From: an uncultured Flavobacteriaceae bacterium
Lineage (GTDB): Bacteria; Bacteroidota; Bacteroidia; Flavobacteriales; Flavobacteriaceae
Direction: 5' to 3'
NCBI GenBank assembly: GCA_963973455.1
Contig: CAXAZF010000009.1
Span: 36,984-100,983, forward strand
DNA length: 64,000 nt
Shown here: positions 3,502 through 5,220 of the stretch, in pieces
How the letters are laid out: every line of letters begins with the position of its first letter
Position numbering within the stretch: the stretch's first letter is position 1
Translations under genes and position numbers: made by a program
The notes under the pieces: model-generated
Databases searched by the model: none
The model's input: only the letters and a program-made list of their open reading frames with translations
What the model was told of the DNA's origin: nothing

Positions 3502-4161
3502 ATGGAAACCGCAACAAAAGAAAAAATGGACATCAGCAAACTATCTGCTGAAGAGTTACAAGCCGAGCTAAAACGCCGCGAAGAGACCGAAAAAAAGCAA
3601 CGCCTTAAAGCCCGAAACGATTTTAATAAGGACAAAGAGGATTTTACGCTGCATGCAGCTTCAAAATTTAAGAGCCTACAAAAAGAGTTGGCCGAGCTAA
3701 AAGAATACACCATTCGTGAAGCGAATAAGCTGTACGAACGTATGTATTTAATCAATGACAAAGAGCCAAAAGAAACCAAGAGCTTCAGCTTAAAAAATGA
3801 AGCTGACAATATAAAAGTGACCGTAGATCGTCAAGAGAAATTCGAGTTTACCGAAGAGGCAACGGTACATATTGGTGCTATAAAAGACATCTTTAAAGAG
3901 AAGTTTGAAGACCGCAACAAAGGGATGTACAAGATTATGGACAACCTTTTGGTAAAAGGCTCAAAAAAGGAATACGACCCCAAACTATTGGCAAAAGCAC
4001 GCCAAGCCGTTCGCGAGTTGGGCGATGATAAACTAATGGCCGAGTTTGACAAACTCGAAGATTGCCAACGCGTAGTGGGTACTTCATTATACTGCCGTCT
4101 CTACGTTCGCGATGACAAACAAAAATGGCAGGATGTTTCACTTCAATTTTCAAGCTTATGA
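3502..4161 (+). CDS. DUF3164 family protein (Mu-like prophage early protein)
   Basis: Charged N-terminal coil, 'KSFSLKN..IKVTV', 'YDPKLL', C-terminal 'WQDVSLQFSSL' typical of this family. Confidence 0.7.
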   Translation: METATKEKMDISKLSAEELQAELKRREETEKKQRLKARNDFNKDKEDFTLHAASKFKSLQKELAELKEYTIREANKLYERMYLINDKEPKETKSFSLKNEADNIKVTVDRQEKFEFTEEATVHIGAIKDIFKEKFEDRNKGMYKIMDNLLVKGSKKEYDPKLLAKARQAVRELGDDKLMAEFDKLEDCQRVVGTSLYCRLYVRDDKQKWQDVSLQFSSL

Positions 4162-4385
4162 GCCATAGAGAAAACCAAATAGCTGCAGATCAAGCAGCAT
4201 CCGTAAAATATCACAGTGTAGCAACGCCCAGTGTAACCATCTCGCAACCGCAAGATGATCAATATTTGGTAAACGGCAAGCTGTTGTATTTAGACAGCAA
4301 CAATAAATGGATCACAACCGATGAGCTTACGTATAAAGAACGGCAAGCCTTCCGGAAAGAATTGCACAATGCAAAAGATGGGTAG
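4158..4385 (+). CDS. hypothetical phage protein (YLVNGK...NNKWIT motif)
   Basis: ATGA overlap with DUF3164 stop; 75 aa. Confidence 0.65.
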   Translation: MSHRENQIAADQAASVKYHSVATPSVTISQPQDDQYLVNGKLLYLDSNNKWITTDELTYKERQAFRKELHNAKDG

Positions 4386-4610
4386 CATCTCATTACCTGC
4401 GCCTGGCAAAAAAACAGTTTAGACTGTAGGGAGCAGTAACACGCTGTAATGTGGTTACTACCGTTCCGCCCACCTTAATTAATGGGATAATTTAACGGTA
4501 GTTTCAAAAAAGATGGAGTGATGCTTAAAGGAAACAACTCTTAATTACAGAAACGCCGTTGGCCACTACGATAGTGTGGCAGAAACTTCCGGGCAATCCC
4601 GGAAAGTCTC

Positions 4611-4717
4611 GACCGGGTGGCGAAATTGGTAAACGCGATATGCACTCCTGGCTATTGAAACTGGTAGAACAGGAAAACGTACGAGGTTTCTTGCAGGTTC
4701 GAGTCCTGCCCCGGTCA
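4611..4717 (+). ncRNA. tRNA-like element lacking a canonical anticodon arm
   Basis: Acceptor stem GACCGGG/CCCGGTC + discriminator A; D arm GCG-AAATTGGTAAA-CGC; T arm GCAGG-TTCGAGT-CCTGC; 55-nt central segment not forming a standard 5-bp/7-nt anticodon arm. Confidence 0.7.
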
Positions 4718-4761
4718 CTAAATATGCATAAATGGTATTTATACCTATTAAATAGCATAAA

Positions 4762-4796
4762 ATCTAATGGTTAACATCTAATGTCTAACGTCTAAT
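4762..4796 (+). repeat. five degenerate tandem heptamers (ATCTAAT GGTTAAC ATCTAAT GTCTAAC GTCTAAT)
   Basis: Read directly; ends 1 nt before ATG 4798. Confidence 0.6.
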
Positions 4797-4797
4797 T

Positions 4798-5220
4798 ATG
4801 AAAGCAACCAAGTACCAAAAAAAACTGATCCACATGAACGCGCCCAATCGCGATACAAAAGAAGAGTACGTGCAATGGGCAACTGGCGATGTGAGCAAAA
4901 TAAGCTGCAACGATCTCAACTTTGAGCAAGCAAACGCAATAATCGAAAAACTTGGCAAACGTCCGGTAAAAGCCTTTAAAGAAGACACGCCCATGTATTG
5001 GGCATATTTTGACCGCTTTAACGGCCAACACAAATACATACAAAGCCTGTTGCATCAAGTAGGTTGGACAATGCCAAACACCAAATACGGACGTGTACCC
5101 GATCTACCACGCTTTGGCAATTGGTTGCAAAGCGATAAAAGCCCTGTAAACAAACCATTAAAAAAAATGAACCCAACCGAGTGCAGTAAAATAGTCGCTG
5201 CACTGGAAGGAATGTTATAA
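4798..5220 (+). CDS. phage regulatory protein, possibly GemA/Mu gp16-like
   Basis: C-terminal 'LKKMNPTECSKIVAALEGM' resembles GemA/DUF1018 tail; early operon position. Confidence 0.45.
   Translation: MKATKYQKKLIHMNAPNRDTKEEYVQWATGDVSKISCNDLNFEQANAIIEKLGKRPVKAFKEDTPMYWAYFDRFNGQHKYIQSLLHQVGWTMPNTKYGRVPDLPRFGNWLQSDKSPVNKPLKKMNPTECSKIVAALEGML

Follow-up and report, generated by a model that had tools for sequence, protein, structure and literature searches.

A conserved tRNA-like element and possible RNA-processing signal in the early region of Mu-like phages of Flavobacteriaceae

Genomic context and structure of the element

The DNA analysed here, referred to as the window, is a stretch of 64 kb (contig C9, positions 36984-100983) from a 2.93-Mb Flavobacteriaceae genome, and the subject of this report is a tRNA-like element of 107 nucleotides (nt) at positions 4611-4717 of its + strand. 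All genes around the element lie on the + strand. The upstream part of this operon contains the C-terminus of a transposase (phrog_310), followed by a MuB-like transposition ATPase (phrog_296, AAA_22), a further ATPase, a DUF3164 gene (3502-4161) and an open reading frame (ORF) of 86 residues (4125-4385). The latter belongs to a family with the pattern YxVNGKxxYxDSNxxW, is the conserved left neighbour of the slot in which the element lies, and has homologues directly upstream of the element in ten or more loci. A structured non-coding stretch of 225 nt (4386-4610) separates it from the element, which is followed by an 80-nt spacer and by a GemA-like gene (phrog_286, 140 residues, 4798-5220), the conserved right border of the slot. 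The Pfam model for GemA (PF06252) matches five of nine members of this GemA-like family, the best E-value being 5e-5, below the curated cut-off. Judged by its gene content (transposase, MuB-like, DUF3164 and GemA-like genes), the DNA around the element comes from a Mu-like, transposable prophage and forms its early region, in agreement with a previous sequence-only reading of this DNA, which had also argued that the tRNA-like sequence is not the relic of a phage attachment site.

The RNA of the element reads GACCGGG-UG-GCG-AAAUUGGUAAA-CGC-(56 nt)-GCAGG-UUCGAGU-CCUGC-CCCGGUC-A, from the 5' strand of an acceptor stem to discriminator A73. The acceptor strand GACCGGG (4611-4617) pairs at all seven positions with CCCGGTC (4710-4716), and is followed by U8-G9 (4618-4619) and by a D arm (GCG / AAATTGGTAAA / CGC, 4620-4636) with G18G19, which is aligned by Rfam and is nearest to that of the host tRNA-Leu(CAA). 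This host tRNA is also the closest to the whole 5' part of the element (22 of 27 bases identical). The T arm (GCAGG TTCGAGT CCTGC, 4693-4709) carries the motif GGTTCRANYCC, invariant or nearly so throughout the family described below, and the acceptor 3' strand, the discriminator (4717) and a trailer CTAA, which mimics host pre-tRNA trailers, occupy 4710-4721. Thus the element has the canonical stack of acceptor stem (7 bp) and T stem (5 bp), a T loop U54-U55-C56-R57-A58, U8 (4618) and a D arm with G18G19, all as the sequence-only reading had described them.

A standard anticodon arm, with a 5-bp stem and a 7-nt loop containing U33 and a purine at position 37, is absent, which likewise agrees with that reading. 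In place of the anticodon and variable arms there is a lineage-specific insert of 56 nt (4637-4692), predicted to form an irregular hairpin of about 14 bp with a 6-nt loop. Its minimum-free-energy fold combines UAUG/CGUA, UCCUG/CAGGA and an apical CUAUU/GGUAG stem, and corresponds to the second of the two alternatives given by the sequence-only reading, with the apical stem added. Folded alone, the insert is no better than shuffled sequence (z=-0.87), and it has no homologue in about 100 related loci.

When the Rfam tRNA model RF00005 was applied to positions 4400-4900 with permissive filters, the element scored 41.2 bits (gathering threshold 29; E=2e-7), with the acceptor, D and T arms aligned at full posterior probability and a 44-nt local insert replacing the anticodon arm. 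Rfam at the gathering threshold with default filters gave no match for the element, and ARAGORN with default settings found no tRNA and no transfer-messenger RNA (tmRNA) in the whole window. A structural scan of both strands of the window under strict requirements (all 7 acceptor pairs and all 5 T-stem pairs formed, a loop TTCRA, and GG within the D arm) returned this element as its sole match.

An element with these features might still decode, as a tRNA from which an intron is removed or as one whose enlarged anticodon loop reads frameshifts or quadruplets. The intron mode of ARAGORN forces a Phe(GAA) tRNA, in which a weak GCUA/UGGU stem could carry a 7-nt loop, UUGAAAC, that contains U33 and A37, and three related elements (L036, L102 and L093) are called tRNA-??? 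with 4-nt anticodons. However, the 'intron' would measure 11 nt, at position 33/34 on a stem of 3-4 bp, without a bulge-helix-bulge and far too short for group I. The putative anticodon would lie at the tip of an arm of about 14 bp, far beyond decoding geometry; the loops of relatives are 10-15 nt long rather than 8, some members have no anticodon arm, and the phage ORFs are open under the standard bacterial code. A decoding role is for these reasons extremely improbable. The known intron types (bulge-helix-bulge at 37/38, or group I of more than 200 nt) were rejected separately, as the insert is 56 nt long and no Rfam intron family was found.

A family of elements in related phages

Using the GemA-like protein, 90 related loci were fetched from IMG/VR, JGI metagenomes and Flavobacterium genomes. 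The first relatives, recognized as Rfam tRNA-like matches upstream of the same gene, came from F. cerinum, F. suaedae and a Flavobacteriaceae metagenome-assembled genome, and their anticodon regions are all aberrant: one has a loop of 10 nt (UUCGGGGGGA), one a loop of 15 nt with C9, and one lacks the stem altogether. Since MAFFT misaligns full-length elements, the covariance model R1 was based on eight real top halves, to which randomised anticodon arms were attached. In 500 kb, R1 gave 36 matches (E<=1), on the operon strand except in one locus pair; 29 of 31 covariance-model matches lie on that strand. On the 2.93-Mb host genome it found genuine tRNAs and this element only, the latter (51.7 bits with R1/R2) being its sole match in the window.

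Related Mu-like phages of Flavobacteriaceae contain at least 25 distinct homologous elements in this slot, which is bordered upstream by DUF3164 or the small YxVNGK protein and downstream by the GemA-like gene. The 25 aligned distinct members measure 49-107 nt, and 46-125 nt is the range with members found later, when a scan for the leader motif described below added L126 (46 nt), L122 (125 nt) and L124. Common to all members are an acceptor stem of 7 bp, a T stem of 5 bp and the motif GGTTCRANYCC. A D arm, of several tRNA types, is present in about two thirds of the members, and the T loop is strictly kept even where the D arm is missing. The anticodon region varies from a 14-nt linker to inserts of about 90 nt, and four members (L035 and L072, 49 nt; L077, 50 nt; L126, 46 nt) have neither an anticodon arm nor a D arm. 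Exactly one element was found in each phage record searched whole (14/14), at 6.9-9.4 kb from one end. The window copy shares the synteny, strand, single copy number, 7+5 bp stack and trailer of the family.

The closest relative of the window copy is L077: its acceptor strand is GACCGGA, its T arm is the same, and the two have an upstream hairpin CCACUNCGAUAGUGUGG in common. In L077, only 16 nt stand in place of the D arm and the 56-nt insert. The remodelled anticodon/variable region emphasized previously is real in this copy but conserved in no relative. The existence of members without any anticodon arm, together with the covariation described below, supports the more general claim of a non-decoding tRNA look-alike, which is under selection.

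No canonical tRNA was found by ARAGORN in the slot in 436 kb of related loci; apart from one dubious Val, its calls there were all 'tRNA-???', with 'anticodons' of 2 or 4 nt. Direct DNA searches found no further members: an exact-pattern scan of IMG/VR for the 5' half of the element gave none, BLAST of the element and of the first 12 kb against 50,697 phage records gave no match, and a search of 401 family genomes at the DNA level gave only T-arm matches to ordinary tRNAs. In the loci without an element, no known ribozyme or other RNA was found in the same slot (Rfam, E<=0.5).

Several members have peculiar bottom halves. L036 (3913-3986) and L102 (1741-1814) carry G6 at the anticodon position, in a 10-nt loop; L034 (3008-3086) has C9 within a 15-nt loop at that position, and L063 (856-926) holds the G-quadruplex-like sequence GGGAGGGTTGGGGTGGGG. 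L124 (5203-5355, + strand) is nested or duplicated: within a single acceptor stem (TCCCGAT/ATCGGGA) lie a D arm and a T arm (GGTTCAAATCC), followed by another D arm and another T arm, an arrangement that looks like recombination between two tRNA-like bodies.

Selection on RNA pairing

In the alignment of the 25 members (A6), 91.8% of the cells at paired positions are indeed paired, compared with 65.5% in shuffles and 34-50% when the partners are slid. Changes on both sides occur in 19 of 21 pairs, including all seven acceptor pairs, which bears out the covariation that the sequence-only reading had asked to see in homologues. In the T stem 99% of the cells are paired, and compensatory double substitutions are found in three of its five pairs. 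These values are to be read with the caveats that A6 was fitted to the model and that part of the variation may be inherited from different ancestral tRNAs. A cleaner test is offered by L097 and L098, in which the top halves of the elements are identical at 50 of 52 positions, compared with 80% at third codon positions of the adjacent gene; the middle part is identical at 27 of 32.

These data bear on two further explanations. The first is that the element is a decaying phage tRNA-Leu pseudogene, now without function, which would account for an insert that folds no better than chance and has no homologue elsewhere, and for the 35 of 58 related loci that have no clear element. However, the acceptor, D and T stems are all perfect, though decay would strike them as often as the anticodon arm, covariation extends over the whole family, and the 436 kb of related loci hold no intact tRNA ancestor in the slot. 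The conservation of the top half between L097 and L098, above that of third codon positions, renders this explanation untenable for us, and we regard it as highly improbable.

The second is that the element acts at the DNA level as a module junction, a conserved block of about 60 bp (T arm, acceptor and trailer) serving mainly as a patch of recombination homology through which the variable accessory genes behind it are exchanged, with the RNA structure as the legacy of a captured tRNA. The upstream genes are indeed conserved, while the ORFs just downstream belong to many unrelated families. The nested or duplicated element of L124 is what recombination would give, and the D arms of members are of different tRNA types. 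Nevertheless, the compensatory double substitutions in all acceptor pairs and in three of the five T-stem pairs indicate selection on RNA pairing and not on DNA identity, and the acceptor sequences are too divergent to serve as homology patches. We consider this explanation very doubtful.

Leader, trailer and spacing

In most loci the upstream ORF (DUF3164 or the small YxVNGKxVYxDSNxNW protein) stops 7-22 nt before the element, and in 14 loci the next ORF begins 20-24 nt past the discriminator; in most relatives these distances leave no space for a promoter or terminator belonging to the element. Immediately 5' of many elements lies a leader motif, TAGGTTAGTTARTTNGGT, with stops in all three frames, for instance at L037:1190, L063:839, L064:1803, L067:2107, L111:2181 and L126:1571-1588 (- strand), and at other sites. 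About ten members are preceded by (TAG)GTTAGTTARTTNGGT, again with stop codons in all three frames. Such a leader would keep ribosomes off the tRNA-like fold. The TAGGTTAGTTARTTNGGT motif was also observed in six unrelated IMG/VR contigs, beside hairpins or in tandem copies, and may be a general 'stop-all-frames' insulator of Bacteroidota phages. It is absent from the window; the combination of an all-frame stop leader and a 20-24 nt spacing holds for many members, not for all, and the window copy has neither.

The trailer that follows the discriminator is C-A/T-A in all 25 members (C74 in all; 19 CAA and 6 CTA), and usually continues as CAAAWTTTAAAAC...ATG, which we take to be an A-rich initiation region without a Shine-Dalgarno sequence, as in Bacteroidota translation. 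Among 33 host tRNA genes, C74 is found in 30 and A75 in 24, CAA is the commonest trailer, and CCA is not encoded. The sequence-only reading had singled out CTA, instead of CCA, as a peculiarity of the window copy; because host tRNA genes and all members share such a trailer, it is the normal context of a CCA-less pre-tRNA and uninformative in itself. The discriminators of the 25 members are 12 A, 11 G and 2 U, and the acceptor-stem sequences differ.

The tight packing of ORFs could also be explained by a structural insulator that acts in cis without any cleavage. The fold would bring stop and start together, aid re-initiation or ribosome recruitment through its elbow, or block exonucleases, and the transcript would stay intact. 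The stops at 7-22 nt upstream, the 20-24 nt to the next start and the conserved A-rich trailer agree with this, but a generic hairpin would be enough for it, so that neither the invariant T loop nor the 7+5 bp stack is accounted for, and a perfect pre-tRNA mimic would be unlikely to escape RNase P in vivo. Moreover, pairing of leader and trailer that would sequester the downstream start is not significant (z -2.2 to +1.9), and the spacing in the window is 80 nt. An uncleaved insulator thus appears very unlikely.

A candidate signal for excision by RNase P and RNase Z

The features by which RNase P, RNase Z and the CCA-adding enzyme recognize their substrates are the 12-bp stack of acceptor and T stems and the T loop, plus, optionally, the elbow formed with the D loop. 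What is conserved across the family are only the determinants of these three enzymes, while those for decoding or for enzymes that act on the anticodon are not kept. The host encodes a type A RNase P RNA (178 bits) and an RNase Z (TIGR02651, 305.9 bits, above cut-off). In view of the conserved processing determinants, the presence of the enzymes in the host and the lack of room for a promoter or terminator of its own, we propose that the element is a non-decoding pre-tRNA mimic that is excised by host RNase P and RNase Z and thereby punctuates the early transcript, a proposal to which we give about even chances. A processing signal that cuts the early transcript was among the functions suggested previously; it is favoured by the conserved determinants, the co-orientation with the operon, the tight ORF packing and the host-like trailer, with cleavage itself as the predicted part.

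From the observed structure, family covariation, synteny, strand, spacing, trailer mimicry and presence of the two host enzymes, we infer a scheme of transcription, cleavage and regulatory consequence as follows. The element would be transcribed within a long early transcript, and its RNA would fold into the coaxial stack of acceptor and T arm, with the Leu-type D arm forming the elbow in this copy. Host RNase P would recognize the fold and cut before G4611, and host RNase Z would cut after A4717, as in the CCA-less host tRNA genes. Excision would split the transcript into a part for transposition and DUF3164, here with the 225-nt structured leader, and a part for accessory genes and the GemA-like gene, the latter gaining a defined short 5' leader. 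The anticodon domain, being dispensable in this scheme, would be free for deletion, expansion or replacement, and the 56-nt hairpin would be one lineage-specific variant.

Several observations weigh against the excision proposal. The spacing of the window copy is atypical, with 225 nt upstream and 80 nt downstream instead of 20-24 nt. A full D arm with G18G19 in many members is unexplained by a pure processing signal, and one site per genome would also be expected of a dedicated RNA gene. Of the 58 non-redundant loci that extend 1 kb or more upstream, 23 have a clear element and a few more have degenerate 6/7-bp versions, and for that reason the element is not essential. Finally, four of the five changes in the middle part between L097 and L098 preserve a small hairpin, and the anticodon-arm equivalents of L036 and L102 differ at all five stem pairs around a common 10-nt loop U-YY-GGGGGG-A. 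A processing signal leaves such upkeep unexplained, and by comparison of these two pairs some lineages constrain their own bottom half too.

The latter observations fit better with a tRNA mimic that acts in trans. The excised, stable L-shaped RNA would itself be the product, acting as a sponge, inhibitor or decoy of a host factor that recognizes the top half of tRNAs, with candidate targets being abortive-infection toxins that modify the acceptor end, the CCA-adding enzyme, RNase P, EF-Tu and, for this Leu-like copy, leucyl-tRNA synthetase (LeuRS), and the lineage-specific arm would tune stability or specificity. In agreement with this, there is a single copy per phage genome, the T loop is strictly kept even without a D arm, anticodon-arm equivalents are kept by compensatory change within sub-lineages, and G6/C9 loops recur. 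The window copy has A73, A14, A15-U48 and G18G19, which we take from E. coli tRNA-Leu identity to be LeuRS identity elements. On the other hand, the acceptor sequence, the discriminator and the type of D arm vary, so that no single synthetase or sequence-specific partner fits, and the bottom half, ranging from a 14-nt linker to an insert of about 90 nt, excludes an anticodon-nuclease decoy as the role of the family. In addition, the presence of the element is uncorrelated with that of the neighbouring small protein (no co-occurrence; 16/24 vs 17/35), and no partner gene was identified. We regard a trans-acting mimic as a serious, though less likely, alternative. Of the two decoys considered by the sequence-only reading, one of anticodon nucleases is unlikely because the family has no conserved anticodon-loop mimic, and one of synthetases is not a family feature, as acceptor stems differ and discriminators are A, G or U.

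A related but unlikely variant is that the minimal acceptor/T-arm body serves transposable phages of Flavobacteriaceae, and perhaps Mu-like phages generally, as a tRNA scaffold. Hijacked RNase P, RNase Z and CCA enzyme would provide for its excision and stability, and it would display a fast-evolving, lineage-specific RNA cargo with a role in trans, in regulation or as a decoy against defence. The cargo would then consist of the G6/C9 loops, the G-quadruplex-like tracts, long hairpins such as the 56-nt arm and the nested second tRNA body, and the family, more than marking a cut site, would supply a diversifying set of small RNAs on a common scaffold.

Sequences flanking the element and other RNA features

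In a sub-clade of the related phages, a conserved structured non-coding RNA of about 185 nt (model R3) ends exactly where the tRNA-like element starts. It was found at L080:2200-2384, L044:1857-2041, L078:2114-2294, L046:2115-2295, L056:2149-2329, L042:2204-2385, L041:168-367, L047:412-597 and L077:2039-2238, and is characterized by long-range helices and by a terminal hairpin whose loop reads GCGAKA and whose stem shows compensatory changes. It has no Rfam match. A homology of the region upstream of the element in the window (4386-4610) to this RNA, proposed by eye, was rejected, as R3 gave no match there even with filters off. The same applies to a similarity of positions 4456-4582 to RAGATH-36 RNA (RF03104), which scored 17.7 bits (E=0.27; gathering threshold 70) and had no match in 19 related loci.

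In the window, a GC-rich hairpin TTCCGGG-CAAT-CCCGGAA (4587-4604) lies 6 nt 5' of the predicted RNase P site and could protect the 3' end of the upstream RNA; it is not kept in most relatives. On the other side of the element, heptamer repeats (TCTAATG-GTTAACA-TCTAATG-TCTAACG-TCTAATT, 4763-4797) directly precede the start codon of the GemA-like gene (4798), and could be a binding site for a regulator or a promoter region between the element and this gene. Repeated CTCTAAAGGTTATAA was observed at the equivalent position in L042 and L080.

A second kind of tRNA-like sequence is found in L057 (4751-4829, - strand; = L103), on the opposite strand and 2.3 kb downstream of the GemA-like gene, with a class-II-type variable arm (GAGCC-TTCG-GGCTT) and an abnormally short anticodon loop. 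Also downstream of the GemA-like gene, in a related phage (L032:6170-6249, + strand), there is a match to c4-2 RNA, a family of phage antisense RNAs, with 39.9 bits (gathering threshold 41). L038 (5594-5693, + strand) contains a near-perfect long hairpin of about 100 nt, to which Rfam gives only spurious matches of plant miRNA precursors. Elsewhere in the host genome (G000, C7:145398-145472, + strand), ARAGORN calls a class-I 'tRNA-Ser(GCT)' of 75 nt beside a normal tRNA-Ser(GCT) of 88 nt; it has mismatches in the acceptor stem (TGTCCAAG.../...CTTGAAAA) and could be a disrupted tRNA or one borne by a mobile element.

Comparison with known systems

No phage or Bacteroidota family of this kind was found described in the open-access full-text literature, and Rfam 15 has no model for the family other than the generic tRNA. 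The closest precedent is formed by the t-elements of plant mitochondria, non-canonical cloverleaves within mRNAs that share the motif GGTTCRANYCC and an acceptor-like stem (Forner et al. 2007, PMC1920247). The borders of t-elements are the 5' and 3' ends of mRNAs made by RNase Z and RNase P, and an excised t-element can be a stable RNA with added C or CCA (PMC1920247). The phage element has the same T-arm motif and acceptor-like stem, is embedded among genes of what would be one longer transcript, and has a non-canonical remainder. However, t-elements are organellar, dispersed relics at several genes, while the phage family occupies a single syntenic slot, and they have neither an all-frame stop leader nor a conserved initiation trailer. 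Furthermore, cleavage has been demonstrated for t-elements, whereas it is predicted for the phage element.

In mammalian nuclei, the tRNA-like sequences of the MALAT1 transcript (mascRNA) and of MEN-beta (RF01684) are cut by RNase P and RNase Z, which makes the 3' end of the upstream RNA and releases a CCA-tailed, non-aminoacylated small RNA. The 185-nt structured RNA that abuts the phage element in the sub-clade resembles this arrangement, a parallel limited by the fact that the upstream RNA of the window does not match the model of the sub-clade RNA. Unlike the phage element, these are eukaryotic nuclear transcripts; there is no sequence relation, and Rfam gives no match of the element to RF01684.

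With canonical tRNAs (RF00005) the element shares the acceptor, D and T arms, U8, G18G19, the T loop and a CCA-less trailer, but not the 5-bp anticodon stem or the 7-nt loop, and its relatives are armless or have 10-15-nt loops or inserts of about 90 nt. Some phage tRNAs carry altered anticodon loops that evade anticodon nucleases. The tRNA-like domain of tmRNA similarly keeps the acceptor and T arms, has a reduced D stem and has a long helix instead of the anticodon arm, and the Rfam tmRNA model aligns to the T arm of the relative L089; the phage family differs in its size of 46-125 nt. A tmRNA was nevertheless rejected for the window copy, which has C3-G70 and not G3:U70, no tag frame and no pseudoknots, gives no ARAGORN -m gene in the region and has no Rfam tmRNA match.

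Among viruses, the gammaherpesvirus MHV68 encodes tRNA look-alikes (vtRNAs) that are not aminoacylated, and their main demonstrated role is to recruit host RNase Z and CCA addition for the processing of linked RNAs. They are likewise viral tRNA look-alikes, but those of a eukaryotic virus, in which they also act as RNA polymerase III promoters linked to pre-miRNAs, a role not possible in bacteria.

Implications

The family stands out as a tRNA mimic that is minimal, conserved and confined to one site in the genomes of transposable phages. Its members form a natural series of minimal substrates (46-125 nt) in which the needs of bacterial RNase P, RNase Z and CCA enzyme can be compared. They might also be of use as compact natural insulator parts for polycistronic expression in Bacteroidota, for which, to our knowledge, there are no design rules based on Shine-Dalgarno sequences. 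If the excised RNA works in trans, it would represent a new class of phage tRNA mimic. If processing is real, the 'pseudo/undetermined' tRNA calls in prophage annotation would be explained, and the family would be the bacterial-virus counterpart of the tRNA punctuation known from mitochondrial t-elements and from mascRNA of mammalian long non-coding RNAs. A stripped-down pre-tRNA in the early operon would then borrow the host maturation enzymes to yield separately controlled parts of the transcript, and RNase P and RNase Z would join the known post-transcriptional controls of transposable phages.

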